Shown here: in pieces, positions 6,063 through 43,681 of the stretch
Layout of the letters: every line of letters begins with the position of its first letter
Numbering within the stretch: position 1 is the first letter of the stretch
DNA from: Escherichia coli
GTDB taxonomy: Bacteria; Pseudomonadota; Gammaproteobacteria; Enterobacterales; Enterobacteriaceae
Strand: one strand, 5' to 3'
Assembly: GCF_024223415.1 (NCBI RefSeq)
Contig: NZ_CP100500.1
Length of the DNA: 64,000 nucleotides
Notes under the pieces: model-generated
What the model was told of the DNA's origin: nothing
Database searches by the model: none
Seen by the model: only the letters and a program-made list of their open reading frames with translations
Program-made: the position numbers and the translations under genes

Positions 6063-6140
6063 TGATGCGCCGCGCGATAAATGCGCTCTATCTTGTGCGA
6101 TAAATGACAACCAATCGGCGTTTCATTATTTGAAAAAGAA
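6063..6140. repeat. prophage end on the gin side (attR-like) with transposase-binding-type motifs
   Basis: TGATGCGCCGCGCGATAAATG...GCGATAAATG plus CGTTTCATTATTTGAAAAAG resembling the Mu end consensus; mirrored at the other end. Confidence 0.6.
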
Positions 6141-6700
6141 TTACATTTCAGGTTGCGTTATGACTGTCCCAGCGGGGTGATAGCGGTAGATCGTTGACAG
6201 TCCAATATCATAGATAATTACCAGCCGCTTTCTGTCATACCCTTTCTGGAGCAATCTTGCGATCTGCTCATGCTGCTCCTTCGTCAGTTTCGGGCGACGC
6301 CCTCCAACTCTCCCTTGTGCTCGCGCAGCAGTCAGTCCTGCCAGCGTGCGCTCAACTATCAGTTCACGTTCCATTTCTGCCAGTGCACCCATCATATGAA
6401 AAAAAGAACCTTCCCATCGGAGTGCTGGTATCGATTAAATCCGTCAGACTGCGAAAATTGACACCTTTTGCGCGTAGCTCTTCTGTGAGCGAAATGAGGT
6501 GTTTCATTCTTCTACCCAACCGTTACAGCTTCCAGACCACCAATGTATCCCCTCTTTTAAGGCACCTTAAAGCGCGTTTCAGGCCTGGTCGTTGCGACTT
6601 AGTTCCGCTCATTTGTCCTCAAAAATTTGTTCACATCCTGCGCACATTAATACATTGCGTTTTGGTCATTTGTTGACACACGTATGTAGCCAATCAGCAT
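6141..6700 (-). pseudogene. gin: Gin/Pin-family serine DNA invertase, inactivated
   Basis: Translation gives MLIGYIRVSTNDQN, CAGCEQIFEDK, RPGLKRAL..GDTLVVWKL, HLISL..GRFFF and the C-terminal HTH in different frames; in-frame TAA, a 7-A homopolymer frameshift (6399-6405) and further indels. Confidence 0.8.
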
Positions 6701-6770
6701 CAAAAACACTCCCTTTTGAGTGGTTAAAGTAGTGAGATAATGTGGGGAAGATTTGAGAGATAACCCGCCC

Positions 6771-6803
6771 CCGCAATATCGCATTTAACTATATTGTGAG
6801 GGC
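6771..6803. repeat. 33-bp inverted repeat, copy A
   Basis: CCGCAATATCGCATTTAACTATATTGTGAGGGC; 31 of 33 identical to the reverse complement of 7437-7469. Confidence 0.7.
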
Positions 6804-6815
6804 GCGTGATACCGT

Positions 6816-7430
6816 TCAGCCAGCAAGCGCCAGTGGCGCTTCCGGCCAGCTGATTTCAGGTGCCTTGCTGATATCCAGTGCGTTCAGATCGTCGATATAA
6901 TCCAGCACGGCATTCAGTTTTGCCGTTTCTTCTGGTGTCAGACTGCGACCTGCCCGCAACTTAAGGTTGATGAGGTCGATGGACTTCATCGCCTGATCCA
7001 CCCGTTCCTGGCGTTGCTGTCTGGCAACCTCCAGCTCTTCGGCTTGCTGCCGTTCTGTATCGGTTACCCACGCCTCACCGTTCCAGGTATCCCATGGTGT
7101 GGCAGGCTGTTTTGTCGTTGTCCCTTCCGGGTAGTCACCTGGTTGGGTAATCTGGACCGGATTACCGTTCTCTGTGCTGTATACCGTCTCTCCACGATGA
7201 TCGGGGACATACTCCCACCCGTCCAGCGTGGACGTCCGGCAAATCACGTAACCCGGCATTGCCTCTGGCGGGGCATCGGCGCATGAATGTGCCGGGGTAC
7301 CCACCCCCAGGGCCAGATACTCCACAGAGGATGAGGTGTATTCCCGGGTTTCCTCATCATAGTGATATACAGTGATATCGCCTGCGAAAGTGGCGATACC
7401 GTTTTCATCCAGAACTGCAGTGTTACTCAT
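6816..7430 (-). CDS. tail fibre assembly protein (Mu U-like)
   Basis: 204-aa tail fibre assembly protein sequence; start ATG overlaps the tail-fibre stop (TAATG). Confidence 0.8.
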   Translation of the reverse strand: MSNTAVLDENGIATFAGDITVYHYDEETREYTSSSVEYLALGVGTPAHSCADAPPEAMPGYVICRTSTLDGWEYVPDHRGETVYSTENGNPVQITQPGDYPEGTTTKQPATPWDTWNGEAWVTDTERQQAEELEVARQQRQERVDQAMKSIDLINLKLRAGRSLTPEETAKLNAVLDYIDDLNALDISKAPEISWPEAPLALAG

Positions 7431-9268
7431 TAAACTGCCCTCACAATATAATTAAAAGCGATATTGCGCGGTCTGATCGCTATCCATCTGTCTTTTTCAT
7501 TACTCACCAGCTTACCGGCTCTGGCTATTGCCCATCTGTCAACTGGTTTTGTGCCGTACAGGATGCCGTTACCGGTTCTGGGTTGATCAGGGGTTATGTT
7601 TATGATGTCGTTATCATGTGATGCAAATGAAATCCCTGCCTGAATATCTGCACCTCCCGCTACGCCGTGGTACGCCTGTATGGAGGTACAAATATATGTT
7701 GCTTCCTGTGTGGATAACAATAAGCGTCCCCTGTCAATCATTCGCAGGTCATCCCATCCACGAATAAATTCCCCGCGCAAATCTGGTAGCCTGAGGTCAG
7801 GGTAGGCCACCGCCAGTTTTGGGTATTTTGTACGCGTGAATGCGGCACCGTTGCACTGTAACCACCCCTCAGGTGGTCTTGACGAAGGCCACGGAACGGG
7901 TACGCCAACTGGCAGCGTCGAGCCTTCTCCTAAACCAAGGTAATCAAGAATATCTTTTATGCTTTGTTTACCCATGATGACGCGGGCAACAGACGAAAAA
8001 ACAGGGGCGTCTGTGATCTGAGCCCAGCGATGAGTGTGGGCTGCCGAGGCTTTGCTGTTGGCAAGGTCATACGCAGCTTTAACAGCTTTTGGTGTGGCCG
8101 CCAGCATTTCGGAATTGCTGTTTGTGGCGCTGCTTAGCTGTACGATGCCTTTGCGTCCGGTGGTTGCATCCTGTCCTGTATACTTGCTCGTCAGCATATC
8201 GTGTAAGGCTTTAACCGCTTTGGGGGTGGCGGCCTCAGTCTCTGACTCACTGTTTGTGGCACTGCTCAGCTGTACGGTGCCTTTTGCCGTCAGCGAGGCT
8301 GATGGCACACCTGTTATCTGATTCCACGGGTGGGTGTGGCTGGCGGGTGCTTTACCGGCTGCAAGGTCATATGCAGCCTTGACGGCTTTTGGTGTGGCCG
8401 CCAGCGTTTCGGAATTGCTGTTTGTGGCGCTGCTCAGCTGTACGATGCCTTTGCGTCCGGTGGTTGCATCCTGTCCTGTATACTTGCTCGTCACCATATC
8501 GTGTAAGGCTTTAACCGCTTTGGGGGTGGCGGCCTCAGTCTCTGACTCACTGTTTGTGGCACTGCTCAGCTGTACGGTGCCTTTTGCCGTCAGCGAGGCT
8601 GATGGCACACCTGTTATCTGATTCCACGGGTGGGTGTGGCTGGCGGGTGCTTTACCGGCTGCAAGGTCATATGCAGCCTTGACGGCTTTTGGTGTGGCCG
8701 CCAGCGTTTCGGAATTGCTGTTTGTGGCGCTGCTCAGCTGTACGATGCCTTTGCGTCCGGTGGTTGCATCCTGTCCTGTATACTTGCTCGTCACCATATC
8801 GTGTAAGGCTTTAACCGCTTTGGGGGTGGCGGCCTCAGTCTCTGACTCACTGTTTGTGGCACTGCTCAGCTGTACGGTGCCTTTTGCCGTCAGCGAGGCT
8901 GATGGCACACCTGTTATCTGATTCCACGGGTGGGTGTGGCTGGCGGGTGCTTTACCGGCTGCAAGGTCATATGCAGCCTTGACGGCCTTCGGTGTGGCGG
9001 CCAGTGTTTCAGAAGTGCTGTTTGTGGCGCTGCTCAGTTGGGTGAATCCTTTTTCTGTCAGTGTCGCGTCAGGGTGGTTACGGGAACGTGCGTGTTCAGC
9101 CAGTGACTGTGCGACTTCCTCCGTTTTCTTCTTCAGCCATTTCGTCCTGTTTGCCAGTTGCCGGGGGGCTCGATTTGATATCCCGTCTGCACCACCCAGA
9201 ACCGGATCTGATGTCTCCAGTTGATAGATATTTTCTTCCCACTTTTCTGTTTCATTCAGGTTTCCCAT
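7430..9268 (-). CDS. tail fibre protein (Mu S-like) with internal 100-aa repeats
   Basis: Repeated SSATNS..ETLAATPKAVKAAYDLA..HTHPW motifs; GGGAG RBS before ATG at 9268. Confidence 0.85.
   Translation of the reverse strand: MGNLNETEKWEENIYQLETSDPVLGGADGISNRAPRQLANRTKWLKKKTEEVAQSLAEHARSRNHPDATLTEKGFTQLSSATNSTSETLAATPKAVKAAYDLAAGKAPASHTHPWNQITGVPSASLTAKGTVQLSSATNSESETEAATPKAVKALHDMVTSKYTGQDATTGRKGIVQLSSATNSNSETLAATPKAVKAAYDLAAGKAPASHTHPWNQITGVPSASLTAKGTVQLSSATNSESETEAATPKAVKALHDMVTSKYTGQDATTGRKGIVQLSSATNSNSETLAATPKAVKAAYDLAAGKAPASHTHPWNQITGVPSASLTAKGTVQLSSATNSESETEAATPKAVKALHDMLTSKYTGQDATTGRKGIVQLSSATNSNSEMLAATPKAVKAAYDLANSKASAAHTHRWAQITDAPVFSSVARVIMGKQSIKDILDYLGLGEGSTLPVGVPVPWPSSRPPEGWLQCNGAAFTRTKYPKLAVAYPDLRLPDLRGEFIRGWDDLRMIDRGRLLLSTQEATYICTSIQAYHGVAGGADIQAGISFASHDNDIINITPDQPRTGNGILYGTKPVDRWAIARAGKLVSNEKDRWIAIRPRNIAFNYIVRAV
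7437..7469. repeat. 33-bp inverted repeat, copy B (inside the last codons of the tail-fibre gene)
   Basis: GCCCTCACAATATAATTAAAAGCGATATTGCGC; partner of 6771-6803. Confidence 0.7.
7985..9000 (-). repeat. in-frame tandem repeat, 300-bp unit, about 3.4 copies
   Basis: Near-identical 95-aa antisense ORFs at 8034, 8334, 8634 and 8934 reveal the 300-bp period; sense strand encodes repeated 100-aa units. Confidence 0.7.
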
Positions 9269-9270
9269 AA

Positions 9271-9849
9271 TCAACTTCTCCCGTGGTTATAACTGCCATC
9301 ATGGATGGCGGTATTGTTATAGCGAATGGCCACAGACTGATACTCCAGGCTGGCCAGATGGCAGCGGGCCGGTGCAAATGCAGTGAGCGTCTGACGCAGC
9401 ATCGCGGCCTGATCGTTAGTAATGGGCTGTTTCAGAATAACGCGATAAACCGCCCAGCCTGCTGTATCTCCATGAACAAACAGTCCGTTATGGCTGCGAT
9501 TGCCGTCGTAACTGAGACGACCTGTGCCTTCAATCAGATCCACTTCACCAAAGCCAAAACGGCGGATAACTTCCCGGATTGACCACGGCGTCCCTTTATA
9601 CCGGTGCAGTTCGATGGCTGCTTTTATAAGCATGCGGCGAACATCGTCCGATTCCGCCAGCTCCCAGCCATCGCCAGACAGTGAGAACTGCTCGCCCAGC
9701 CATGGCAGCGCGGAACTGTCGACGATATCGACGAGAAAGACCATCAGTACGCTCAGGTCGATGTTATCCAGCCGTCCTGCCAGTCTTCCCAGCGTCCTGA
9801 GACTGATATCACCCTCAAGCGGTGGCGGGAGTTGTAATGGCTCAGTCAT
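9271..9849 (-). CDS. baseplate/tail protein (P2 gpI-like, Mu gp48-like)
   Basis: 192 aa; position between baseplate J and tail fibre. Confidence 0.75.
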   Translation of the reverse strand: MTEPLQLPPPLEGDISLRTLGRLAGRLDNIDLSVLMVFLVDIVDSSALPWLGEQFSLSGDGWELAESDDVRRMLIKAAIELHRYKGTPWSIREVIRRFGFGEVDLIEGTGRLSYDGNRSHNGLFVHGDTAGWAVYRVILKQPITNDQAAMLRQTLTAFAPARCHLASLEYQSVAIRYNNTAIHDGSYNHGRS

Positions 9850-10945
9850 CAGACACTCCAGTCATGTTAAGTGTGATCGCCGTACAGTTTGCCCATTCGT
9901 TTTCTGCCACCACCCTCAGTGCCGGTGTCACCAGCTCAACCTGGTACACCCCGGAAACGGACAATGCACTGATAATCTGGCTGGGGACAATATCACGCCC
10001 CAGCGCGGTGGCACGTGATGCCACCCAGTTCTGTATGGCGCTGTTAGCGTTGTCCTTTACCAGCCTTGCATCCTGGTCACGATAGATCGTAATCCTGGCT
10101 TCAATGGTGTAATCCACCTTCACTGGTGTTTTAGCCCGCACGGTATCAGTGAGTGGTCTGACTTTTTCGTCCGAACAGAAACTCTCTACCAGCGTCAGAA
10201 CACCGCTGTCCGGCAGGCCGGTGCTCAGCAGCGGATAAATTTCTACTGTGCCGGGAACCGGGGAAAGTACAGCAACATCGACAATGCCGGGATGGGCCTG
10301 CATGGCATGAAAGCGGTATGCGCCACGGCTTCCGGCATTGGTGAATGACTCCGGGGCCAGCCTGATACGCTCCCGGAGCCTGTCATCGTCTTCCTGTTCT
10401 GAACCGCCGGAGCTGGCCGTCAGATTGCTCACCAGCAGGTCGACGTTATCAATCTCATCGAGTAACTGACTGACCTGCGCAGGTTGCCAGCCGTTACCAG
10501 CAGTACCGGGTTCGGTACAGGTGGCCGTGACATTGACCAGTAGCAATCCGGCCTTCAGTACCACATCTGTATCGGTGGCAAAAATAACGCTGTCGGAAGC
10601 GCTGACGCGGGTGCCTGCCGGGATCAGCACATCAATGGCCAGTGCCTCATCCACAGAGAACTGGAGCGTGGTGGTGGCAGGCTGCGCGGCAAGGCGGTAT
10701 ACACCGACCAGTTCACCGAGGTAATCAATCATCGGCTCACGGGCAAAGGCGACAAGATTCTGCTTTGCTGCCTCCTGTACCGCAACCCTGACCAGCATTT
10801 CGCGATAGGCCCACAGGTCAATCAGCAGACGTTCTGCCTGTGCCGGGTACAACGTTTTGCCGGTATCCGCTTCATATTTCGCAATTATTTCTGCCGTGAT
10901 TTTATCGGCATCGCGTTCAATAAAATCGGGTTCTGTCAGCGCCAT
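9842..10945 (-). CDS. baseplate J-like protein (Mu gp47-like)
   Basis: 367 aa; baseplate J family sequence and position. Confidence 0.85.
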   Translation of the reverse strand: MALTEPDFIERDADKITAEIIAKYEADTGKTLYPAQAERLLIDLWAYREMLVRVAVQEAAKQNLVAFAREPMIDYLGELVGVYRLAAQPATTTLQFSVDEALAIDVLIPAGTRVSASDSVIFATDTDVVLKAGLLLVNVTATCTEPGTAGNGWQPAQVSQLLDEIDNVDLLVSNLTASSGGSEQEDDDRLRERIRLAPESFTNAGSRGAYRFHAMQAHPGIVDVAVLSPVPGTVEIYPLLSTGLPDSGVLTLVESFCSDEKVRPLTDTVRAKTPVKVDYTIEARITIYRDQDARLVKDNANSAIQNWVASRATALGRDIVPSQIISALSVSGVYQVELVTPALRVVAENEWANCTAITLNMTGVSDD

Positions 10946-11283
10946 AGCAGCTCCTGAGTCCGGGTCTGTCCGTCTGAGCCTTTCCAGCTCACCCGGAGCG
11001 TAAGATGTTCGCCGTCGACGGCGGGTTTAACCGACATAAGCTGGCAGCGGGGTTCCCAGCGCCGGATGGCATCGACGGATTCGCGCACCACATGCGGAAT
11101 GGCCCGGTCTACAGGCCAGTCGATATAAAGATGCAGATTGCTGCCGAACTCCGGGCGATGCGGGTCGCTGCCGCGGGGAGTCCGCAGGATAATTTGAATC
11201 GCCTGCCGGATATCATCCAGCCCCCGGACAATTTCGCCGGGAGCCTGCAGGGCTGGTTGCCAGAATACTGAGGTGGTTTTCAT
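10936..11283 (-). CDS. baseplate protein, GPW/gp25 family (Mu gp46-like)
   Basis: 115 aa; family-typical sequence; overlaps J start. Confidence 0.8.
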   Translation of the reverse strand: MKTTSVFWQPALQAPGEIVRGLDDIRQAIQIILRTPRGSDPHRPEFGSNLHLYIDWPVDRAIPHVVRESVDAIRRWEPRCQLMSVKPAVDGEHLTLRVSWKGSDGQTRTQELLWR

Positions 11284-11339
11284 GGGGGCAGTATTGCCCC
11301 CGGGAAGTAAGCGCCGATATTAAAGGCGTTTAAGAAGGT

Positions 11340-11867
11340 TCAATGGGAATGGTGATTAGAGTTCTGACCATCAGCAAATATGTCACCCGTTGCATGGGCG
11401 CTTCCGTTGATTTCCAGATCACCATTGAGTGTCGCGTTGCCGTTGATTGTGGTAACTCCCGTGAGGTCAATGTCTTTCCCTTTGAGAGAGATATCAGCGG
11501 CAACCTCCACCACGATACGCTCAATACCTCCTCTGACCGTCAGCGTATGGGTCGCGCGGTTATAACTGAACTCCGCGCCATCAGCGTATTTCGTACCCCG
11601 GACGCTTTTATCACTGAACGGCGGTTTATCGACGTCTGAGTACACCGCGCCCAGAATAACACCGTCCTCGCCGTTGGCATCGAGCAGCACCTCAACCTGC
11701 TCCCCCACGTCAGGGAGCCAGTAATCCTTGTTATCCTGGGTATTGCGCTGCAGCACGTTAAGCCAGTTTGTGCGCAGGTTATCGCATTCAGGCAGACGAA
11801 CGCGGGCCTGAACCCTGTCGGCATCAACGGCACTGACCGTACCGACCTGACGAGTGACACCAGTCAT
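11340..11867 (-). CDS. baseplate assembly/spike protein (gpV-like, Mu gp45-like)
   Basis: 175 aa; N-terminal OB-like region then Gly/Asn-rich C-terminus. Confidence 0.75.
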   Translation of the reverse strand: MTGVTRQVGTVSAVDADRVQARVRLPECDNLRTNWLNVLQRNTQDNKDYWLPDVGEQVEVLLDANGEDGVILGAVYSDVDKPPFSDKSVRGTKYADGAEFSYNRATHTLTVRGGIERIVVEVAADISLKGKDIDLTGVTTINGNATLNGDLEINGSAHATGDIFADGQNSNHHSH

Positions 11868-13018
11868 TTTTTCTTCTCCTTAATCACCGTCGATGTACTG
11901 CCATCCGGGTGATAAACCGTGAGTTTCTGAGTTTTTTGTTTTTTCCCTCTTGTGACTGGCCCCCGTGCCACTTCCAGCTCTGTGGTGTAGCCGCTGTTAC
12001 GGTCAAACGCATGGCGGGCAGTGGTTATGAGCCATGGCCCGGATAACTGCCCAAAACCCACCAGTTCAATTTTGTTGCCTGCTGTCAGTTGAGGCGTTCC
12101 CGTCAGCGTCAGGGAGCCGTTCTGCTGGTATTCGTTATGTCTGGCCAGTGCTGAATCCGCTTTAATCCGGGCACTGTCCGGGTCGCTGACGCGGCTGTTA
12201 ACTTTAAGTGAGTCAGCGCTGGTAACCTTACCACCTTTGAGCTTTTTGTCGCTTTCACGGGTACCACCATCAGCTTCGTAGACGATCAGTTTTTTACTGC
12301 TGCTTTTCTGGTGTTTTACCTTTGCAGATTTATAGACCCGGTTGATGGTGTCACGCAGGGAAAAGCGGGCCACATCCTGCGGTTTTAACTGCCTGACCGG
12401 CTCCTGACTGCGCAGTGTGGCCAGATGAGAAAAAATCAACTGGTCACTGACCACTTTCACTGCATAACCATACTCGCTGGCCAGCCGGCGCAGAAAACCC
12501 ACGTCGGTTTCAGCATACTGGGTCACCCGGTCGATTCTGATGGACTCAATGCTGCCCACCAGTTTCAGTCGGTGCTTTCTGGCAATCCGCCCCGCAACAG
12601 CTGCCAGAGTGGTGTTCTCAAAACCACGGCTGGATTTAGTCCGCAGAGCACTGTTAACCGAGGTGGCCACCCCACGGATAGCGACAACGGACGCGGGCGA
12701 ACTCACTTCGATCTCGTCTATTGAGAATGTACCGCAGGACAGCAGTTTCTCGCCCTGATAACCCATTTTCAGCGTCAGCGTGTCACCCTTGCCCGGATAC
12801 CACTTATCCAGCCAGCGGCCATCGGTGTCGTCCAGCTCCACCTCAATGGTATCGGACTCATTTTTGATGTTATCGCTCCAGACCACACGGGTGACATAAG
12901 GCGCGATATCAGAGGTGATGTTTTTCTGCAGATACCACATAGTGAACACCGGCGTCAGCACCTCGCTGACGCCGGTTAACGCTGATGTGGCTTGCGCAGT
13001 GCTGTTTATCTCAGCCAT
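11864..13018 (-). CDS. tail/baseplate hub protein (P2 gpD-like, Mu P-like)
   Basis: 384 aa; conserved position after tail protein X. Confidence 0.75.
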   Translation of the reverse strand: MAEINSTAQATSALTGVSEVLTPVFTMWYLQKNITSDIAPYVTRVVWSDNIKNESDTIEVELDDTDGRWLDKWYPGKGDTLTLKMGYQGEKLLSCGTFSIDEIEVSSPASVVAIRGVATSVNSALRTKSSRGFENTTLAAVAGRIARKHRLKLVGSIESIRIDRVTQYAETDVGFLRRLASEYGYAVKVVSDQLIFSHLATLRSQEPVRQLKPQDVARFSLRDTINRVYKSAKVKHQKSSSKKLIVYEADGGTRESDKKLKGGKVTSADSLKVNSRVSDPDSARIKADSALARHNEYQQNGSLTLTGTPQLTAGNKIELVGFGQLSGPWLITTARHAFDRNSGYTTELEVARGPVTRGKKQKTQKLTVYHPDGSTSTVIKEKKK

Positions 13019-13221
13019 GGGGCAATATCCTCTTCTGTACGGGCATCTTCAGCCTCAATAACCGGGATCAGTAACAACAACCCGGAGGGCAGCACCGGCG
13101 TGATAGCCACGTGCGGATTGGCTGCAATAATCCGGGGATAGCCCAGCGGGTCACCGTAGTACTGCCATGCCAGCGAATCCCAGCGCTCTCCGTCACGGGT
13201 AATATGTTCAAGAAACATCAC
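13006..13221 (-). CDS. tail protein X-like
   Basis: 71 aa; small protein between gpU-like and gpD-like genes. Confidence 0.7.
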   Translation of the reverse strand: MMFLEHITRDGERWDSLAWQYYGDPLGYPRIIAANPHVAITPVLPSGLLLLIPVIEAEDARTEEDIAPWLR

Positions 13222-17575: not shown

Positions 17576-17650
17576 AGTGGTTAACCTCCGGGGAAGGTGA
17601 AAAGACGTGAGGGGATAACGCAGAACAGCCGCCACTGGCGGCTGTCTGTA

Positions 17651-34154: not shown

Positions 34155-34206
34155 ATATTTTGATTCTTTGTAAAAGGTTATCACATATCGCAAAAGAGGT
34201 ATGCAG

Positions 34207-34515: not shown

Positions 34516-34525
34516 GGAGTAATCA

Positions 34526-35760: not shown

Positions 35761-35775
35761 CAGGGAAGACAAGCT

Positions 35776-37545
35776 ATGACCCCGGCACTGACTGAAAAAC
35801 TTGTTGAAACAGCCCGCGCGGCACGTAATGCAGGGCATGGTAAACGCGGTGCAATATACGACGCTGCCTGTGCTGAACTTGGCATGTCCCGCGCCACTCT
35901 GCTGCGCAGGCTGAAGGAGGTCTCTGTGACTGATAAACGCAAAAAACGCGCCGATGCCGGACGCAGCACCCTGACCCGCGACGAAGCCGCGCTGATATCT
36001 GCCACACTACGTGAGGCCACCCGCAAGAACGGTAAGCGTCTCTATTCCATCGCGGATGCAGTGGAAACCCTGCGGGCTAACGGCTTTATCTCCGCAGGCA
36101 GAACAGATGAAACCACCGGTGAGTTTTTCCCGTTGTCCGAAGATGCCATCAGTCGTGCCCTGCGTAACTATGGCCTGCACCCGGAACAACTGGATGCCCC
36201 TGCACCGCATACCGAAGTGGCCAGTCTGCACCCCAATCATGTCTGGCAGATTGACGCCTCACTCTGCACGCTTTACTACCTGAGCAATGGACATAAAGGG
36301 CTGCAGGTGATGGACAGCGCGAAATTCTACAAGAACAAGCCCGCTAACCTTGCCCGTATCGCCAGTGACCGCGTGTGGAGTTACGAGATTACCGACCATG
36401 CCAGCGGCTGGATTTACGTTGAGTATGTGACGGGTGCGGAATCCGGTGAGAACCTGTGTTCTGTGCTTATCAACGCCATGCAGGAGCGTGGCGGCGCAGA
36501 CGTGCTGCACGGCGTGCCAAAAATACTCTATCTCGACCCCGGCTCGGCAAACACCGCGGGTATGACGAAAAACATGTGCCGCTCACTGGGCATCGACCTG
36601 ATAGCGCACAAGCCGCATAACGCCCGCGCCACCGGACAGGTGGAAAAGGCGCGTGACATTATCGAACGCAAGCTGGAGCCGGGTCTGAAGTTCCGGCCGG
36701 TTCACAGTCTGGAAGAACTCAACGCGCTGGCCGCGAAATGGCGCAGCCACTTTAACGCCACGGCTGTTCACAGCCGCCACGGTAAAACCCGCACGGATAT
36801 CTGGCTGAAGATTACTGCTGAGCAGCTGAAAAAAGCGCCTTCCGTTGAGGTATGTCGTGAACTGGCTGTGGCGGCACCAGAACTCCGCAAAGTCACGCCA
36901 AAACTTCGTGTCTCGTTCCGGGGCACTGAATTTGACGTATCAACGGTACCGGGCGTACTGGTCGGTGAAAAACTGATGATTACCCGTAACCCGTGGCGCA
37001 GCGATGTGGCACAGGTGGTTCTGACCGGTGAGGACGGCCACGAGACGTTCTTCCTGGTCGAAGAGGTCAGAAAGAACGAGTTTGGCTTTGCTGAAGGCGC
37101 GGCGGTATTTGGCGAAAGTTACAAAGCCCTGCCGGAAACCCCGGCGCAGATGGCGGCAAAAGAAACCGAAGCGCTGGTCACCGGTACAGACAACGCCGCA
37201 GATGCAGCTGCCGCACGCAAGGCGAAGGCGCTGCCGTTCGGCGGGCGGCTTGACCCGTATAAACATATTGATGACGCCACACTTCCGGCCTGTATACCGA
37301 AGCGTGGTCAGGCCTCTGACGTACGCGGACCGCGCACTGAACAGCGTCCCATGACTCATGTGGAGGCCGCGAAAGCCCTGCGCGGGAAGTTTAGCGCAAA
37401 CGGCCTGACCTGGACGCCGGAACATTACCGCCAGTTAACGGCACAGTACCCGGACGGCGTACCGGAAGCCGCACTGGATGAAGTCATGGCCACGCTGACC
37501 ACGCCGGCCCGCAGCAGCGTTATCAGCATTGTTAACGGCAACTGA
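35776..37545 (+). CDS. DDE transposase (Mu A-like)
   Basis: 589 aa; N-terminal HTH, integrase-core-like region (HVWQIDASL...), followed by the B-like ATPase. Confidence 0.85.
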   Translation: MTPALTEKLVETARAARNAGHGKRGAIYDAACAELGMSRATLLRRLKEVSVTDKRKKRADAGRSTLTRDEAALISATLREATRKNGKRLYSIADAVETLRANGFISAGRTDETTGEFFPLSEDAISRALRNYGLHPEQLDAPAPHTEVASLHPNHVWQIDASLCTLYYLSNGHKGLQVMDSAKFYKNKPANLARIASDRVWSYEITDHASGWIYVEYVTGAESGENLCSVLINAMQERGGADVLHGVPKILYLDPGSANTAGMTKNMCRSLGIDLIAHKPHNARATGQVEKARDIIERKLEPGLKFRPVHSLEELNALAAKWRSHFNATAVHSRHGKTRTDIWLKITAEQLKKAPSVEVCRELAVAAPELRKVTPKLRVSFRGTEFDVSTVPGVLVGEKLMITRNPWRSDVAQVVLTGEDGHETFFLVEEVRKNEFGFAEGAAVFGESYKALPETPAQMAAKETEALVTGTDNAADAAAARKAKALPFGGRLDPYKHIDDATLPACIPKRGQASDVRGPRTEQRPMTHVEAAKALRGKFSANGLTWTPEHYRQLTAQYPDGVPEAALDEVMATLTTPARSSVISIVNGN

Positions 37546-37555
37546 GGAGGGAAAC

Positions 37556-38722
37556 ATGCTGGTACTGAAGCAGCAACTGAAAGAGGCCCGTATTCCACAG
37601 GCGGTGGCGGCGAGAGCTGTCGATGTTTCTGAGGCCACGCTGGCCCAGATTGTGAATCATAACGCGTGGCCCCGCACCAGCCCCGGAGAAGTGCGCCGGC
37701 GTCTTGCGTCCTGGCTGGAAAGTCAGGGGATTGATACAACGAAGAGTTTTGATGCTGTACAGGGCGCGGCCACGCCCCGTACAGCGAGTACCACAGATAA
37801 AACGAGCCTCAGTGAGGAAGAGAATATGTTACTCAAAAAACAGGTGTTATTTCCAGCAACCAAAAAAGCGTTTGGTCTTTTCCGTGACCCGTTCGCCGAC
37901 GAAGCCATGCAGGGTTCTGATGATGTGTTCACCACCCCGGACATTCGCTACGTGCGTGAGGCGCTGTACCAGACAGCCCGTCATGGTGGGTTTATGGCCG
38001 TCATCGGTGAGTCCGGTGCGGGTAAATCCACGCTGCGCCGCGACCTGACTGAACGTATTAACCGCGAGAATGCGCCGGTAATTGTTATCGAGCCATACAT
38101 CATTGCCATGGAAGACAACGATGTGAAAGGGAAAACCCTGAAGGCTGCAGCGATTGCCGAAGCCATTATCAGTACCATCGCACCACTGGAAAGCATCAGA
38201 CGCAGTCAGGACGCCCGCTTTCGCCAGTTGCATCGCGTCCTGAAAGGCAGCAGCCAGGCGGGGTTCAGCCACGTTCTGGTGATTGAGGAGGCCCACAGTC
38301 TGCCCATTCCGACACTGAAACACCTCAAACGCTTTTTTGAGCTGGAGTCCGGTTTCAAAAAACTGCTGTCCATCGTGCTGATTGGCCAGCCGGAACTGGC
38401 GACAAAACTGTCTGAACGCAATATGGAAGTCCGTGAAGTCGTTCAGCGCTGTGAGGTGGTCGAACTTCTGCCTCTGGACAATAACCTTGAAGAATTTCTG
38501 ACGTTCAAACTGCAACGGGCCGGTAAACAACTGACGGACATTATGGACGCCAGCGCAGTGGATGCCATACGTGCCCGCCTGAGCAATCCGGGAAGTCATC
38601 GTAAAAATATGGTCAGCCTGCTGTATCCGCTGGCCGTCAGTAACCTGGTAATAGCCGCCATGAATCTGGCCGCTGAAATCGGGGTTCCACAGGTCAACGC
38701 TGACGTTGTCAAAGGAGTTTAA
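37556..38722 (+). CDS. transposition ATPase (Mu B-like, AAA+)
   Basis: Walker A GESGAGKST, Walker B HVLVIEEAH; GAGGAGG RBS before ATG 37556. Confidence 0.85.
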   Translation: MLVLKQQLKEARIPQAVAARAVDVSEATLAQIVNHNAWPRTSPGEVRRRLASWLESQGIDTTKSFDAVQGAATPRTASTTDKTSLSEEENMLLKKQVLFPATKKAFGLFRDPFADEAMQGSDDVFTTPDIRYVREALYQTARHGGFMAVIGESGAGKSTLRRDLTERINRENAPVIVIEPYIIAMEDNDVKGKTLKAAAIAEAIISTIAPLESIRRSQDARFRQLHRVLKGSSQAGFSHVLVIEEAHSLPIPTLKHLKRFFELESGFKKLLSIVLIGQPELATKLSERNMEVREVVQRCEVVELLPLDNNLEEFLTFKLQRAGKQLTDIMDASAVDAIRARLSNPGSHRKNMVSLLYPLAVSNLVIAAMNLAAEIGVPQVNADVVKGV

Positions 38723-38724
38723 TA

Positions 38725-38994
38725 ATGAAATCCACCACAGGTATCAACCAGCAAATCAGCAAAGTGCAGTCAGCCATTATGGCGCTTAAGGCGACGAACA
38801 CGGATGTACAAAGCATCACCATCAGGGGTAACAAACCTGTCATCCGCGTTTCCCGGAGTGCGCATTGCATGCGCATGCTTGAGCAGGGAAAGGCCTGTTA
38901 TCTGTATACCGGACATGACCACAGGGGATATTTCCGTCAGGGCGTTTTCGAACTGCACGGCTGTCGCGTCGTGTGGCCGGAATCTTTGTGGTAA
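38725..38994 (+). CDS. hypothetical early protein (kil-position)
   Basis: 89-aa ORF between B and gam. Confidence 0.5.
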   Translation: MKSTTGINQQISKVQSAIMALKATNTDVQSITIRGNKPVIRVSRSAHCMRMLEQGKACYLYTGHDHRGYFRQGVFELHGCRVVWPESLW

Positions 38995-39021
38995 TCAGCA
39001 CAACCGGAGAAATCATAAAAT

Positions 39022-39552
39022 ATGGCAAAAAGTACAAAAGGGGCAAAACGTATCAAGGCCGCAGCGGCACTCTGGGTACCAGGGACACGCGAAGAGGTCA
39101 TTGAGGGAATCAGACTACTCGGTGACGCACAACGTGAACTGGTCAGGGCTGAAACAGAAATGAATGACGCCATTGGCGATATCACCGCACGTTATGCCCC
39201 GCTCACCGAGAGCCTGAAAAAACGCATGGCCGAACTGCAGTCCGGTATTCAGACATGGTGTGAGGCACACCGTGATGAACTGACCGGCAACGGGAAGGTG
39301 AAGTTCGCTAACCTCACCACCGGCGAGGTGCAGTGGCGAAACCGTCCGCCATCAGTCAGTATCCGTGGGGCGGATAATGTTATTGAATTACTGAGACGTC
39401 TGGGGCTTGAGCGCTTTATTCGTGTAAAAGAGGAAATAAATAAAGACGCTATCCTGAATGAAAAAGAGGCCGTGAAAAATATTCCCGGTATTTCCATTAA
39501 AAGCGACATTGAGGATTTTTCAATAATTCCTTTTGAGCAGGATGTGCAGTAA
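39022..39552 (+). CDS. gam: host-nuclease inhibitor Gam
   Basis: Closely parallels Mu Gam along its length (..SIRG.D.V.E.L.RLGL.RFIR.K.EINK.AIL.. and C-terminal IEDFSIIPFEQ). Confidence 0.85.
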   Translation: MAKSTKGAKRIKAAAALWVPGTREEVIEGIRLLGDAQRELVRAETEMNDAIGDITARYAPLTESLKKRMAELQSGIQTWCEAHRDELTGNGKVKFANLTTGEVQWRNRPPSVSIRGADNVIELLRRLGLERFIRVKEEINKDAILNEKEAVKNIPGISIKSDIEDFSIIPFEQDVQ

Positions 39553-39649
39553 ACACACCACGTTAATTATTTAATAAAAACATTTTCTTTTTTATTCCGG
39601 CGTCAGCGCCGCGGGCTTCTGCACGCCGGAAACAGAGGAGAATTAAATC

Positions 39650-39844
39650 ATGATATTTAAATGTATTCAGTGCGAGAGGGATATAACAGCCCTGCGTTTT
39701 CACAGCGCCATCGCCGTGATGTCCGGTAAATACCACATCCCTGCGGTACGCGTCACCCTGGTCTGTCCGTACTGCAGCCAGCATTTTTCGGCAGACGTGC
39801 CCGTCATGGAATTCTCCCGCCCTGACAGGGAGGACGCGCAATGA
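39650..39844 (+). CDS. Com-like zinc-finger protein candidate
   Basis: CxxC...CxxC (CIQC..CPYC) in 64 aa; stop overlaps the start of the next ORF (ATGA). Confidence 0.5.
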   Translation: MIFKCIQCERDITALRFHSAIAVMSGKYHIPAVRVTLVCPYCSQHFSADVPVMEFSRPDREDAQ

Positions 39845-40113
39845 TTACCCCACAGGAAGCACGACAGCGCACCCGAACCCTTGTTGAACACTATGTCAAC
39901 GAGTGTGAATGTCGCGACCTCACCGATGTGAAGCACGTCCTGACGGCGCTAATCAGCATGGCCACACAGGCCATTGTGGCAACCAACGGAAAGGCGGCTG
40001 CCCTGCAGGTACTGATGAACACACTCACCCACACGGCAGAGCATGAGGTGCCGTACCGGATGGAAACCACTGCAGAAGGCGGCCTGCACATCACCGTCAG
40101 CCGGAAGCACTGA
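39841..40113 (+). CDS. hypothetical protein (90 aa)
   Basis: Translationally coupled to the Com-like ORF. Confidence 0.5.
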   Translation: MITPQEARQRTRTLVEHYVNECECRDLTDVKHVLTALISMATQAIVATNGKAAALQVLMNTLTHTAEHEVPYRMETTAEGGLHITVSRKH

Positions 40114-40122
40114 GGGTGCGGC

Positions 40123-40419
40123 ATGACACGAAACACCGAACTCACCCGCACCGCCCTCTACCGTCTGGCCCTGCAGCGTTTCGGGCCGGATGCACAGGCC
40201 CTGAAACTGACAGAAGAGGCCGCTGAACTGGCGGCCAGTGCTGCCCGCAACCTGAACGGACAGGGCAGCGAAAGTGACCTCGCGGCAGAGCTGGCAGACG
40301 TGGAAATCATGACAGAGCAACTGCGCCTTCAGGGGATGGACCGGCTGATTGACTTCCACAAACAGAAAAAACTGGAACGTCTGGCTGCACGACTGGGCGT
40401 GATTTACACGAACGAGTAA
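40123..40419 (+). CDS. MazG-like nucleotide pyrophosphohydrolase candidate
   Basis: EExxE ... ExxD acidic motif pattern (EEAAELAAS ... AAELADVE) in a 98-aa all-alpha protein. Confidence 0.5.
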   Translation: MTRNTELTRTALYRLALQRFGPDAQALKLTEEAAELAASAARNLNGQGSESDLAAELADVEIMTEQLRLQGMDRLIDFHKQKKLERLAARLGVIYTNE

Positions 40420-40645
40420 CCGGGAGGCATTCAATGGCTGACATACTCAGGGAAATCACCGCATGGACACTGATTCTTACTGGTCTGGCGACATGCCTCA
40501 GTGCGGGAGCAGCCCTGGCTGCCCTGCTGATGCACATAACAACACAGTGGTTATGAGAAAAGCTTAAAGCAGCATACAGCCTGAAAGAGCTGTCCGACGC
40601 TGTCCGGGCATGGAAACGGCAGAAAAATACCGGAGATACAGAACA

Positions 40646-41329
40646 ATGACAGACCAGAATAAACACATTGAGAAACTGAAAAAGTTGCTGGCGCTGGCCG
40701 CATCCGGCAACCCGCATGAGGCTGCTCTGGCACTGCGCCGCGCCCGTAAACTGATGGATGTTCACGGCATCACACATTCCGACATCGCCATGAGTGATAT
40801 TGATGAAACCATCAGTCACTACTGGCCGACAGGCAGCCTCCGTCCGCCGCGCTACATGCCAGGGCTGATGAACATCATCCGCGAGGCATTTGGTGTTAAC
40901 TCCATCATTCACCCCGGCACATATCCGGGTGTGGGGTTCTACGGCAAACGGGAACGGGCCGCACTGGCCGCGTACACCTGGGAAGTGCTGGCCCGTCAGC
41001 TGAAAAAGGCGCGTCAGCAGTATATCAGTGCACAGAACAAAAGAATAAAAACCGCCACCCGCACCAGCCGTGGAGACCAGTTTGCTGAAGGCTGGGTGCT
41101 GGCCGTTATCAGTGAAATACAGTCCTTCGCCCTGACCAATGACGAACGTGAACTGATGCAGCAGTGGCTGGAACATAAATACCCGCAGACGCAAACCACC
41201 AGGGCGCGTAAACCGGGAAGAAGTCGCAATGGCGACGCCTCGCGCTATGCGGGGTTTCGAGAAGGGCAGAACGTCAGACTGCACCGACCGGTCAGTGGGC
41301 GGGAACAGCAGAAACTGGAGGCCAGATGA
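40646..41329 (+). CDS. hypothetical early protein with conserved N-terminal helical domain
   Basis: Start at ATG 40646; N-terminal IEKLKKLLALAASGNPHEAALALRRARKLM. Confidence 0.55.
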   Translation: MTDQNKHIEKLKKLLALAASGNPHEAALALRRARKLMDVHGITHSDIAMSDIDETISHYWPTGSLRPPRYMPGLMNIIREAFGVNSIIHPGTYPGVGFYGKRERAALAAYTWEVLARQLKKARQQYISAQNKRIKTATRTSRGDQFAEGWVLAVISEIQSFALTNDERELMQQWLEHKYPQTQTTRARKPGRSRNGDASRYAGFREGQNVRLHRPVSGREQQKLEAR

Positions 41330-41556
41330 TGACGTTATCAGGTAACAGCCGGAAATTAAAAGCCTGCCGAATATCTGCCAGATACCTTTTTGCCCGCGCC
41401 TTTTTTAAGAACGTCAGGCCGGGGATCACAATTGGTGTTATTGCCGGACGCGAACAGGTTGAAAAATACATGTCAGGTGCATGGTGGAATAAAGACCCTG
41501 TCATTGCTGCCCGTAATATTCATATCAGTTGGGGAGATATTCAGAATGACTGCTGA
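41326..41556 (+). CDS. hypothetical small protein
   Basis: 76-aa ORF; weak support. Confidence 0.35.
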   Translation: MMTLSGNSRKLKACRISARYLFARAFFKNVRPGITIGVIAGREQVEKYMSGAWWNKDPVIAARNIHISWGDIQNDC

Positions 41557-41761
41557 ATCTGTTGTATGTGCCCTGTTCTGGTATTGTTTTGTCGGTTGGT
41601 GTACTGCTGAACTGCACCGCCGTTCAGGGTTTTATTCACGTTACAGTGGTGCCGGTTACTGGATTAGCTGGTCGGTGATGTTCCTGTGCTGGCCTGTGGC
41701 ATTTCCTTTATATGTCGATTATATCGGTGATGCAGGCAGAAGGAGCAACGATGATGACTAA
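41546..41761 (+). CDS. small membrane protein
   Basis: GGGGAG RBS; two hydrophobic helices in 71 aa. Confidence 0.45.
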   Translation: MTAESVVCALFWYCFVGWCTAELHRRSGFYSRYSGAGYWISWSVMFLCWPVAFPLYVDYIGDAGRRSNDDD

Positions 41762-42203
41762 ACAACGTCTTATCCAGCTTATCCATATTGCCCGTAATGA
41801 ACTGGGTATGGATGAAGACACCTACCGCCAGATGTTACAGGGGCTGACCGGTAAAGCCTCAACCAAAGGAATGGATACCACACAACTAAACTGCGTGCTG
41901 GAATCCATGAAAAGGAAAGGCTTTCGCGTTAAGCCTGCCGGAAAAGCCAGCTCCGGTTTACCGCTGGATAACCATCCGCAGTCCAGGAAAATCCGTGCGC
42001 TATGGCTTGAAATGGCTGCTGCCGGCATTGTTCGTGACCGTTCAGAAAATGCATTAGCGCGGTGGATCAAGCGGGAAACGGGCATCAGCGCCCTGCGCTG
42101 GCTCAATACTGAACAGGCAAGCAGTGTTATTGAGAAACTGAAGAAGTGGCAGCACAGAGCTGCGGGAGTAAAACATGAGCGACCTGAATCAGTTTCGAAG
42201 TAA
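41751..42203 (+). CDS. gemA: GemA-like regulatory protein (Mu gp16 family)
   Basis: AGGAG RBS before ATG 41751; GemA-family N-terminal sequence; directly upstream of mor. Confidence 0.7.
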   Translation: MMTKQRLIQLIHIARNELGMDEDTYRQMLQGLTGKASTKGMDTTQLNCVLESMKRKGFRVKPAGKASSGLPLDNHPQSRKIRALWLEMAAAGIVRDRSENALARWIKRETGISALRWLNTEQASSVIEKLKKWQHRAAGVKHERPESVSK

Positions 42204-42573
42204 AGGGCCGGAACTCCTGGTGGAGCTGGCACAGCATACCTCTGAGACCGTTCGCGAGATTATTGATATTGAGCCCGCAATTGCCGACCAGATTGGTCAG
42301 GCCGTCGCGAACCGAATGATGCAGGTCTGGGGCGGGCAAAACGTTTATTTCCCGATGGGCATGGTATGGAAGGTCAGTCAGCGCGACCGGGAAATCTTCA
42401 GGGAGTTTAACGGACGCAACCACCACGAACTGGCCCGCAAGTTTGGTGTTTCGCTTCAGTGGGTCTACAGCGTGGTTAAGCGGGTCAGAAAAGAAGAACT
42501 GGATCGGATGCAGGGCAGGTTGTTTGATGAAGATCTGCCAGAGGAGACGAAAGACGTTAACAAATCCAGATAA
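42175..42573 (+). CDS. mor: Mor-family transcriptional activator
   Basis: 132 aa; C-terminal ..FNGRNHHELARKFGVSLQWVYSVVKR.. parallels Mu Mor (..FNGRNVSELTTRYGVTFNTVYKAIRR..). Confidence 0.75.
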   Translation: MSDLNQFRSKGPELLVELAQHTSETVREIIDIEPAIADQIGQAVANRMMQVWGGQNVYFPMGMVWKVSQRDREIFREFNGRNHHELARKFGVSLQWVYSVVKRVRKEELDRMQGRLFDEDLPEETKDVNKSR

Positions 42574-42618
42574 TTCCTGCTTGTTAAAGTCCTTTCAAAA
42601 ATCTCCTTATTGTATAAA

Positions 42619-42650
42619 AGCACGGTAGACCCCGTACCGTGCTTTTTTTA
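42619..42650 (+). terminator. rho-independent terminator
   Basis: AGCACGGTA-loop-TACCGTGCT stem followed by 7 T. Confidence 0.6.
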
Positions 42651-42687
42651 TGCTCTCTCTTTAGTATTCAGGATGCAGGGAGAAAAT

Positions 42688-43320
42688 ATGTTTGACGTTT
42701 CGTTGTTAAATCTGCCATGGGCAACACTGGTGACCCTGACCAGTGGCTATATTGGGTATTTTATTGCGAATGTGGGACTGAAGGATCACCACAAGCCCAT
42801 TGAGGTGACTTTTTCTTCGCTGATTTTTGGCCTGACAGCAATGATGGCTTACCAGGCTGTTATGTGGGCAGGTCTGAATGCCTGGCTGGCAACACCACCA
42901 GCACTTCTGTGTGCCGTTACATGCGGTGCGTGGTGGCGCAGGTACGGTCGCAAATGGATGTACAGATTACTGTGGAATAATGATATTTCATGGTCTGACG
43001 ATACCAGCTCAGCATGGCAGGCAATGTTTGATCAAACAGGCTTCAGCGTTACCGAGGTCAGAGTGATTCTTCGCGATGGTTCCGGTATGATGTCACGGCT
43101 GCCAGGGAACTTTGAACAGTGGCCTAACGGTCCGTTTACCCTGGGGAATAAAGGCGATATGGTTCTTTACGTCACGCACAGCAGCCCTTCAGGCAGTAAC
43201 GAATGGGAAGAGTATAAAGGCGTGGTTGATAAGTACTGGGGAGCTCTGGCAACCTATATTCCAGCAGATCAGATTGCCAGAGTGGAGATCAGGCGCGTTC
43301 GTGCAACGAACGATGAATGA
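42688..43320 (+). CDS. membrane protein of unknown function (moron candidate)
   Basis: 210 aa; 2-3 N-terminal TM helices plus soluble C-terminal domain; downstream of the mor terminator, about 360 bp from the prophage end. Confidence 0.6.
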   Translation: MFDVSLLNLPWATLVTLTSGYIGYFIANVGLKDHHKPIEVTFSSLIFGLTAMMAYQAVMWAGLNAWLATPPALLCAVTCGAWWRRYGRKWMYRLLWNNDISWSDDTSSAWQAMFDQTGFSVTEVRVILRDGSGMMSRLPGNFEQWPNGPFTLGNKGDMVLYVTHSSPSGSNEWEEYKGVVDKYWGALATYIPADQIARVEIRRVRATNDE

Positions 43321-43599
43321 TGTTTATTTTTTCCCTGGGGCAGGGGCTGCCGGCATAGTGGTTTTATTGGCAGAGGAAGACGATTCTCCTTTTCTACCGG
43401 AATCGCGCTCGAACGTCACGATGTGCTTGCTTTTGGGATTTTCTGAGTAATCCAGGCTATCATGCTTATTGTTTTGAGTAGTCATTGGAATCATCCTTTT
43501 TGTTGCGGGTCATGTTTCAGCAAACTCGATTCTAAGTTGCCAGGAAGGATGATTTCAATGCCCGACTTATCTATCGTATAGCGGAAAAGAATTTCAGTT

Positions 43600-43681
43600 C
43601 TGTTCACCAGAACCCATGTTAACCCACTCCAATTCGTTATTTATCTCACGGATCCCCCTTCATTTATCTCATGTCTGATCA
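43600..43681. repeat. prophage end distal to gin, with transposase-binding-type motifs
   Basis: Reverse complement reads TGATCAGACATGAGATAAATG...GTGAGATAAATA, mirroring the other end (TGAT, 9 nt, GATAAATG, 15 nt, GATAAAT). Confidence 0.55.

Follow-up and report, generated by a model that had tools for sequence, protein, structure and literature searches.

A BcepMu family of prophages in gamma-proteobacteria was reportedly described by Summer et al. in 2004. The annotation of Burkholderia phage BcepMu places genes 1-16 on one strand and genes 17-52 on the opposite one, and Mor lies at the very left end. Pseudomonas phage B3 (genus Beetrevirus) has the same divergent layout, in which Mor is located at the extreme left and the repressor and late genes lie opposite the early operon. 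In a passage that cites Summer et al., inversion of the early block is described as a trait of the BcepMu group (PMC3091646), and a second paper presents the inverted early block as a group trait, for the B3 type (PMC5977238). Moreover, 5'-TG...CA-3' termini are stated for BcepMu relatives, and the BcepMu-type transposase is a Tn552-related, rve-core enzyme (PMC2628397).

We analyzed a 64,000-nucleotide stretch of an Escherichia coli genome (contig NZ_CP100500.1), hereafter called the window. Our analysis makes it very likely that positions 6063-43681 are a complete E. coli transposable prophage of the BcepMu type (genus Bcepmuvirus), 37,619 bp in length and with the normal layout of its lineage (Table 1). 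The closest phage record is Escherichia phage PhiKM, a member of Bcepmuvirus, with ~95% nucleotide identity to the prophage.

As is characteristic of Bcepmuvirus, the prophage has TG...CA termini and is flanked by a target duplication. It lies in the myo-inositol island of E. coli, within the gene for a sugar ABC-transporter ATPase, and an empty-site comparison with E. coli FDAARGOS_1058, in which the host gene is uninterrupted, revealed one GGTGCG at the insertion point. The prophage entered the ABC-transporter ATPase gene by transposition, and this gene is split in the strain. A relative in E. coli M45 represents a separate insertion, located between aroA and ycaL with an unambiguous 6-bp duplication (GAAGAA), and exemplifies the differing chromosomal sites at which the prophage is found across genomes. 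A duplication of 7 bp (AGGTGCG) was also considered for the window prophage and was dropped in view of the unambiguous 6 bp in M45. The target duplication is 6 bp in both of these independent insertions, whereas that of Mu is 5 bp.

The two termini of the prophage are inverted-repeat partners. Two GATAAAT-containing repeats in the right terminus (6076-6082 and 6099-6105) are putative transposase-binding sites, and GATAAAT sites are present at the same offsets in both termini. The similarity to phage ends is end specific, as the gin-side terminus matches the right ends of BcepMu and B3, and the mor-side terminus matches the left ends of BcepMu and B3 but not the left end of Mu. When the first 50 nucleotides of the gin side were compared with the right ends of BcepMu, B3, and Mu, none of 500 shuffles reached the alignment score in each case, and the resemblance to the Mu right end that had been noted earlier is thus found at the level of sequence.

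Table 1 Features of the prophage and its insertion site, in window coordinates
Feature	Position	Strand	Remarks
Target-site duplication GGTGCG, left copy	6057-6062		Within host ABC-ATPase gene
Late-side (right) terminus	6063-6112	+	Begins TGATG; resembles right ends of BcepMu, B3, and Mu
Gin-family DNA invertase pseudogene	6141-6700	-	560 bp, four lesions
Remnant invertible segment	6769-7471		Inverted repeats enclose fiber-assembly gene only
Tail fiber assembly protein	6816-7430	-	phrog_105, 2e-88
Tail fiber protein	7430-9274	-	Internal 300-bp x3.3 tandem array, 8061-9037
Baseplate/tail genes, P2 I-, J-, W-, V-, D-, and X-like	9271-13221	-	40-62% identity to BcepMu gp47-51
Individual P2-like genes	9271-9849, 9842-10945, 10936-11283, 11340-11867, 11864-13018, 13006-13221	-	
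P2 U-like tail protein	13218-14102	-	
Tape measure protein	14102-17635	-	261-bp x4 tandem array, 14703-15759
Tail assembly chaperone, small ORF, tail tube, tail sheath	17733-20398	-	
Tail tube	18450-18971	-	67% identity to BcepMu
Tail sheath	18971-20398	-	76% identity to BcepMu
Head-tail connector genes, DUF2190-like gene, major head protein, protease/scaffold	20388-23975	-	
Major head protein	21897-22850	-	
Protease/scaffold	22860-23975	-	
Intergenic region ahead of protease/scaffold gene	23976-24189	-	Position of Mu P_I
Mu G-like and F-like morphogenesis genes, portal, terminase, small conserved ORF	24190-29124	-	
Portal	25453-26949	-	
Terminase large subunit	26949-28265	-	
Terminase small subunit	28262-28816	-	
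Lysis cassette (includes a membrane protein)	29124-31177	-	Start of late strand
Rz-like spanin	29447-30100	-	Lysis cassette
SLT-type endolysin	30090-30824	-	Lysis cassette
Holin	30827-31177	-	Lysis cassette
Divergent intergenic region ahead of holin gene	31178-31308	-	Position of Mu P_lys
P-loop protein	31309-31857	+	Accessory cluster
phrog_2266 protein	31833-32237	-	Accessory cluster
phrog_4490 ORF	32236-32451	+	Accessory cluster
Dam-type DNA adenine methylase	32644-33408	+	Accessory cluster
cI/XRE-type HTH repressor	33527-33865	-	Homologue of BcepMu gp17 and B3 ORF18
Divergent switch region	33866-33965		Between repressor and small HTH gene
Small HTH protein, BcepMu gp16 family	33966-34154	+	62 amino acids; first early-operon gene
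Transcriptional regulator	34201-34515	+	
DUF3102 protein	34526-35443	+	
Small ORF	35443-35760	+	
DDE (rve) transposase	35776-37545	+	Functional analogue of Mu A
ExeA-like AAA+ transposition ATPase	37529-38722	+	Functional analogue of Mu B
Semi-essential early genes	38725-41556	+	Include Gam, NTP pyrophosphohydrolase-like, and DUF2786 genes
Gam	39022-39552	+	
NTP pyrophosphohydrolase-like gene	40123-40419	+	
DUF2786 gene	40610-41329	+	
GemA homologue	41712-42203	+	
Mor/C-family late transcription activator	42175-42573	+	Sole Mor/C homologue in window
Strong intrinsic-terminator-like hairpin	42616-42646	+	12-bp stem and T-run; closes early operon after mor
End-proximal accessory gene, phrog_12870	42688-43320	+	3' of terminator; missing in M45 relative
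Early-side (left) terminus	43632-43681	-	Finishes TGATCA; repeats ATTTATC at 43662-43668 and 43639-43645
Target-site duplication GGTGCG, right copy	43682-43687		Flanks early-side end

Of 48 ORFs compared with BcepMu, 34 match, fully collinearly and on the same relative strands. As in Bcepmuvirus, the early block is on the strand opposite the repressor and the late genes, and all of the lysis, terminase, portal, head, tail, baseplate, fiber, and fiber-assembly genes are on the minus strand, between 31177 and 6816. The rve transposase, the ExeA-like ATPase, an HTH protein of the gp16 family, a cI-type repressor, GemA, and Mor are common to BcepMu and the window, as is a holin/SLT endolysin/spanin cassette. 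Similarly, the Mu-like head module and the P2-like contractile tail module are collinear with those of BcepMu. The transposase shows the Bcepmuvirus trait of homology to BcepMu gp09 (68% identity over 581 amino acids; Pfam rve, 3e-8) and not to MuA, and the transposition ATPase is 59% identical to BcepMu gp08 (AAA_22, 1e-19). However, unlike BcepMu, the window carries a Mu-type Gam, for which BcepMu has no match, a Dam methylase, a decayed Gin, a remnant invertible fiber segment, and other accessory genes on either side of the switch. The tape measure protein is longer than that of BcepMu and contains four 87-amino acid repeats, the large terminase shares only 23% identity, and the BcepMu gp53 acyltransferase is missing from the window.

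Likewise, 20 ORFs of the window match B3 collinearly; these are early, lysis, and head genes, and the repressors of the two are homologous as well. Identities to B3 are 56% for the transposase (B3 ORF12), 55% for the ATPase, 53% for the DUF3102 protein, 56% for the regulator, and 63% for the Dam methylase, although the B3 Dam gene is located among the tail genes, unlike that of the window. An inverted early operon with B3-type transposition proteins is therefore present in the window (cf. PMC5977238). However, the tail of B3 is noncontractile, and none of the window tail genes matches B3; the window has genes for a sheath and a tube in place of a B3-type long noncontractile tail module.

The window prophage and Mu are both transposable phages with random insertion, target duplication, and TG...CA ends. 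They share homologues of Gam (62% identical), GemA, Mor/C, F-like, portal, and terminase proteins, and Gin, as well as a similar right-end sequence and late-promoter-like elements at the positions of P_lys and P_I. However, matches to Mu are limited to Gam, GemA, Mor, some head genes, and the Gin remnant. The tail genes of the window are P2-like, not Mu-like, mom is missing, and one Mor/C-family gene is present where Mu has two. While the Mu early operon is codirectional with the late genes and c sits at the far left, the early operon of the window runs outward, and the window does not have the Muvirus arrangement of all genes except c in one direction.

The sequence-only reading had proposed an inversion of the early module with respect to the late module when compared with Mu, and the gene-by-gene match to Mu bears this out. 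The late genes match the window strand reversed, and gam, gemA, and mor match it direct, so the relative inversion is real. The strands given in that reading are correct (minus for the late genes and the repressor; plus for the small HTH gene, transposase, ATPase, gam, gemA, and mor), and its distances agree with ours, with the switch ~9.8 kb inside the element from the nearest end, at 43681, and mor ~11 kb from the start of the late operon. In contrast, the Mu identities that it gave to c, ner, A, and B did not hold, as these proteins are functional analogues and not homologues. The best BLASTP E-values for MuA and MuB homologues in the window were 0.2 and 2.5, and BLASTP found no similarity to Mu c or Ner, for which no homologues are present at the extreme left end.

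The synteny comparison with Mu, BcepMu, and B3 showed that the window is collinear with BcepMu and B3 in the same relative orientations. The choice between a known lineage architecture and a rearrangement, left undecided by the sequence-only reading, is settled in favor of the lineage architecture, and the orientation was already known as the published normal layout of the BcepMu group and of B3. The inversion relative to Mu is an old difference between lineages whose repressor and transposition proteins are also unrelated. For annotation, the region should be described as BcepMu-like and not Mu-like, and the Mu names "A," "B," "c," and "ner" should be avoided.

It is also conceivable, albeit unlikely, that this prophage of normal BcepMu layout is a decaying, noninducible copy, a view that is compatible with our main explanation. 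The ORF at 6141-6395, read earlier as gin, does belong to the Gin family and lies on the minus strand, but it covers no more than the C-terminal part of a 560-bp pseudogene. Relative to an intact homologue, this pseudogene carries four inactivating lesions: two deletions, of 13 bp and 1 bp, a GAT->TAA stop, and an insertion of 1 bp. In addition, the invertible segment has shrunk to the fiber-assembly gene, which is all that is enclosed by the 35-nucleotide inverted repeats at 6769-6803 and 7437-7471 (91% complementary); an intact relative in M45 has an additional fiber cassette. The Muvirus trait of a functional Gin with an invertible G segment carrying alternative fiber genes is thus absent from the window, and large tandem arrays are present in the tape-measure and fiber genes. 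However, gin is dispensable in the BcepMu lineage, as BcepMu itself has no invertible G region (PMC2628397), and the repeat number of the tape measure differs among relatives with the reading frame kept. The other recognized genes are all open and full length relative to BcepMu, and both ends and the duplication are intact.

A recent inversion of the early block in an otherwise Mu-arranged prophage, limited to this genome or to a small clade, is highly improbable. The Mu-like Gam, GemA, Mor, and gin-side end could, taken alone, suggest a rearranged relative of Mu, but 495 of 5,426 complete E. coli genomes have a contiguous late/early junction (28800-36800), and this junction also occurs in BcepMu and B3, whose genomes derive from virions. 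Moreover, each terminus is homologous to the corresponding end of BcepMu and B3, the target duplication is preserved, and the equivalents of the repressor, Ner, A, and B are not Mu homologues. Least credible of all, with a nearly negligible probability, is that the region consists of two unrelated adjoining partial elements (a tail/head remnant and a transposon-like early module) or is an assembly artifact: the GC skew flips sign near 31 kb and the accessory cluster at the junction has mixed orientation, but the skew change is expected from divergent transcription, a single 6-bp duplication brackets all 37.6 kb, the termini pair as inverted repeats with identical GATAAAT offsets, and the whole unit recurs elsewhere in chromosomes, for example between aroA and ycaL in M45, and matches packaged phage genomes end to end. 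The early module is present in 807 of the same 5,426 genomes, and the region represents an ordinary, very common type of E. coli prophage with little general importance.

In the complete BcepMu-type prophage, the start of the late operon is separated from the repressor by three to four accessory genes (31309-33408), which do not all read in the same direction. Searches of the accessory genes at 31309-32451 and 42688-43320 with PADLOC and NCBIfam assigned no function. The repressor gene is followed by a terminator-like hairpin (33441-33417), and a plus-strand sigma-70-like promoter, TTGACT-17-CATAAT, is located at 33890-33918, ahead of the small HTH gene. The product of the latter is 46% identical to BcepMu gp16 and scores 98 bits against TIGR04111 (cutoff of 34), and its position makes it most likely the Ner/Cro analogue. 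The ORF at 34201-34515, which was called ner-like in the sequence-only reading, has no similarity to Mu Ner and fits this position less well.

The promoters, the terminators, and the dependence on Mor are predictions based on the sequence and on the established behavior of Mor/C of Mu. The repressor would shut the early promoter at 33890-33918. Upon induction, an early transcript of ~8.7 kb would extend to the terminator just past mor, and the transposase and ATPase would mediate replicative transposition via the TG...CA ends. The single Mor/C-family protein would diffuse and activate the late promoters on the opposite strand, which lack a -35 element and precede the holin and protease/scaffold genes. 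As such an activator works in trans, the distance of mor from the late operon and its strand would be irrelevant, and the BcepMu-type layout may have two tiers in place of the three of Mu. We tentatively suggest, as a possibility that is less than probable, that this two-tier cascade, from one Mor/C protein to late promoters with the motif TAAAGCNGATTAAAA, is joined to an outward layout that shields the prophage from host transcription. The two gene blocks point away from the central switch, so host transcription entering either flank would be antisense to the phage genes. If true, such antisense transcription could guard a randomly inserted prophage against accidental induction.

On the late strand, the frequency of full sigma-70 consensus sites does not exceed that expected by chance. 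A search for an upstream activator-binding dyad common to the two late-promoter-like regions and the corresponding regions of BcepMu found none; only the -10-proximal motif is common to them, and a GTAT-N5-ATAC dyad upstream of the holin promoter was dropped because it is not conserved. A second common leader motif, CTGTCTCCNACAACA, did not recur outside the two late-promoter-like regions. Opposite-strand near-matches to the late-promoter-like motif in tail-gene gaps (18126-18140 and 11321-11335) overlap a terminator tail or a ribosome-binding region and are uninformative. The motif is absent from B3, but it occurs at the same two positions in BcepMu and the window, and TAAAGCNGATTAAAA precedes the holin and protease genes in the window, BcepMu, and KP12. 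The region ahead of the protease/scaffold gene contains a terminator-like hairpin (24124-24111) and the late-promoter-like motif TAAAGCAGATTAAAA at 24047-24033, which is found exactly in BcepMu before gp32 and in KP12. The region ahead of the holin gene contains the late-promoter-like element TAACGCGCTTTAAAAT (31246-31231), with no -35 match; its equivalent is an exact match ahead of the BcepMu holin gene and is present in KP12, and the holin-proximal copy of the motif carries three mismatches.

The strand map of the prophage (see table) was checked by PHROG, Pfam, and NCBIfam searches and by tblastn, which upheld the strand assignments of the sequence-only reading, with the late genes and repressor on the minus strand and the early genes on the plus strand. 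Only 10 ORFs of the window match Mu. The head genes and gin remnant align to Mu on the reversed window, but Gam (62%), GemA (36%), and Mor (31%) on the window as given. Because the late-side and early-side matches run in opposite directions, the proposed inversion of the early module relative to Mu is real. The names c, ner, A, and B used in that proposal are functional analogies only; BLASTP of the repressor, small HTH protein, regulator, transposase, and ATPase encoded in the window against Mu c, Ner, A, and B gave no match.

Features of the prophage, with window coordinates and strands
Feature	Position	Strand	Remark
Fibre assembly	6816-7430	minus	
Fibre	7430-9274	minus	
P2 U/X/D/V/W/J/I-like genes		minus	
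Sheath, tube, chaperone, tape measure		minus	
Protease/scaffold, major head protein, connectors		minus	
Small and large terminase, portal, Mu F- and G-like genes		minus	
SLT endolysin, spanin		minus	
Holin	30827-31177	minus	
P-loop protein (phrog_3787), phrog_2266 protein, 71-aa phrog_4490 ORF	31309-32451		between late promoter region and Dam gene; phrog_2266 on other strand
HTH repressor	33527-33865	minus	
62-aa HTH gene	33966-34154	plus	
Regulator, then DUF3102 gene		plus	
rve transposase	35776-37545	plus	
AAA+ ATPase	37529-38722	plus	
Gam	39022-39552	plus	further small genes follow, also plus
GemA	41712-42203	plus	
Mor/C-family gene	42175-42573	plus	

The proposed synteny comparison showed that the window is collinear with BcepMu and B3 and inverted relative to Mu. 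In the BcepMu record, genes 1-16 (Mor, GemA through the ATPase gp08 and transposase gp09 to the HTH protein gp16) lie on one strand and genes 17-52 (repressor, lysis, head, and tail) on the other; 34 of the 48 window ORFs match BcepMu in unbroken order and with identical relative strands. Likewise, Pseudomonas phage B3 has an identical layout and matches 20 window ORFs collinearly, namely the early, lysis, and head genes and Dam, whereas the tail genes have no match. The small HTH ORF scores above the cutoff of a curated NCBIfam model, "BcepMu gp16 family," and the closest phage record, Escherichia phage PhiKM (~95% identity), is classified as Bcepmuvirus. The inverted early block is described as a group trait in a passage of Belda et al. 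2010 citing Summer et al. (PMC3091646), and the inverted layout is also described by Vergnaud et al. (PMC5977238). The choice between lineage architecture and rearrangement, which had been left undecided, is thus settled: the layout is the already known BcepMu/B3-type architecture.

A rearrangement private to this strain is rejected by this published trait and by the contiguity of the junction in other genomes. A query spanning the lysis genes, switch, and transposase start (28800-36800), counted when it matched one colinear place with coverage of at least 80%, was found in 495 of 5,426 complete E. coli genomes, among them strain EC958 (ST131). The early module was present in 807 genomes, where matches stop at the prophage terminus with different host DNA beyond. 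This prophage type is very common in E. coli.

The ends were compared by aligning 50 nt of each to phage ends and scoring against 500 shuffles. The mor-side end aligns with the left ends of BcepMu (0/500 shuffles) and B3 (4/500) and showed no alignment with the Mu left end, whereas the gin-side end aligns with the BcepMu, B3, and Mu right ends (each 0/500). GATAAAT repeats occur at offsets 14 and 37 in both ends. The gin-side terminus (6063-6112) clearly resembles the Mu right end, not only at the very terminus but also in a second CGATAAATG site whose offset is almost equal in the two, in contrast to a transposase without BLASTP similarity to MuA.

The boundaries of the 37,619-bp prophage, the one transposable prophage in the window, proved exact as first read, with TGATGCGCC starting at 6063 and GTCTGATCA ending at 43681. 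GGTGCG flanks both sides (6057-6062 and 43682-43687), while the empty site of E. coli FDAARGOS_1058 has one copy in an uninterrupted host gene; a related prophage in E. coli M45, between aroA and ycaL, has an unambiguous 6-bp flanking repeat, GAAGAA. The prophage in the window, which has TG...CA ends and a 6-bp target duplication, therefore arrived by transposition. According to the KS10 paper, BcepMu relatives have TG...CA termini and a Tn552-related rve transposase (PMC2628397). The insertion splits a sugar ABC-transporter ATPase gene just upstream of its LSGGNQQK signature: the 5' portion (4840-6062, ORF from 4840) is in the left flank, and the signature and 3' portion (43682-44012) are in the right. 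Both flanks match E. coli chromosomes at 99.8-99.9% identity; in these chromosomes the gene sits between iolG and an ABC permease. It belongs to a myo-inositol (iolD/iolG) island of 57-61% GC, present in only 51 of 5,426 complete E. coli genomes.

The repressor and small HTH gene are separated by a 100-bp divergent region (33866-33965) containing a sigma-70-like promoter (10/12 match) that faces the early genes, and a terminator with a 12-bp stem (42616-42646) lies directly 3' of mor. Only one Mor/C-family gene is present in the window, and its product resembles Mu Mor and Mu C to about the same degree. A single activator of this kind would suggest a two-step cascade in place of Mu's three steps. 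Full sigma-70 consensus sites occur on the late strand no more often than expected by chance. The two intergenic regions that precede the holin gene and the protease/scaffold gene have a -10-containing element in common. BcepMu has the exact element (TAAAGCCGATTAAAA) at the same two positions, it is also present in KP12 and PhiKM, and in Mu these positions are occupied by P_lys and P_I. The repressor would keep the early promoter off; upon induction, a single long early transcript would end with mor, whose product may switch on the late promoters in trans. Since such activation would act in trans, the 11 kb distance and opposite strand of mor would be without consequence.

The second element is preceded by a terminator-like hairpin (24111-24140), probably a terminator; Mu has its strong gyrase site at this position. 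The hairpin contains TTTATAAAGGCTTTAC and is kept in BcepMu (L002, ~18735-18765) in the gap between the G-like and protease genes, with a stem that varies from GGCTGTA/TACAGCC in the window to CCCGTAAAG/CTTTACGGG in BcepMu.

A Gin-family invertase gene is present as first reported, but only as a 560-bp pseudogene (6141-6700) with four lesions when compared with the M45 prophage, whose recombinase is intact. Only the fibre-assembly gene lies between the 35-nt inverted repeats (6769-6803 and 7437-7471), and the invertible segment is therefore vestigial; the M45 relative has an extra fibre cassette in the opposite orientation. BcepMu is described as lacking an invertible G region (PMC2628397). 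Within the fibre shaft, the tail-fibre gene carries a 300-bp (100-aa) unit repeated 3.3 times (8061-9037, 98% identity), which gives rise to four spurious ORFs of 95 aa on the other strand. Similarly, the tape-measure gene (14102-17635, minus) carries a 261-bp (87-aa) unit repeated 4.0 times (14703-15759, 97% identity). Its span in related E. coli prophages is ~3534, 3270, or 3012 bp, equal to 4, 3, or 2 copies, suggesting tail-length polymorphism by in-frame gain or loss of repeats.

The stretch from the start of the late operon to the repressor is occupied by accessory genes in both orientations, one of them for a Dam-type methylase. The P-loop ORF truly begins at an ATG near 31309, behind an AAGGAG site, leaving a divergent intergenic region of 131 bp; the three accessory ORFs at 31309-32451 gave no assignable function and no defence-system match. 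A 210-aa phrog_12870 gene (42688-43320) follows the early-operon terminator and adjoins the prophage end; the M45 relative lacks it, which suggests an end-proximal moron.

Outside the prophage, the low-GC (37-49%) region at 50000-60500 resembles a tRNA-Phe-associated island, with a 404-aa ORF (59068-60282, minus) adjoining tRNA-Phe (60429-60504, minus). Two public records seem anomalous. PhiKM (L001, PQ738613) is a "partial genome"; it joins the fibre end straight to the mor end, and a gap breaks its tape-measure gene. The KP12 clone KP12_2 contig (L007, OM835952) is filed as Vequintavirinae, yet its genome is BcepMu-like, with 85% identity to the window, and it is thus probably a co-purified induced prophage.
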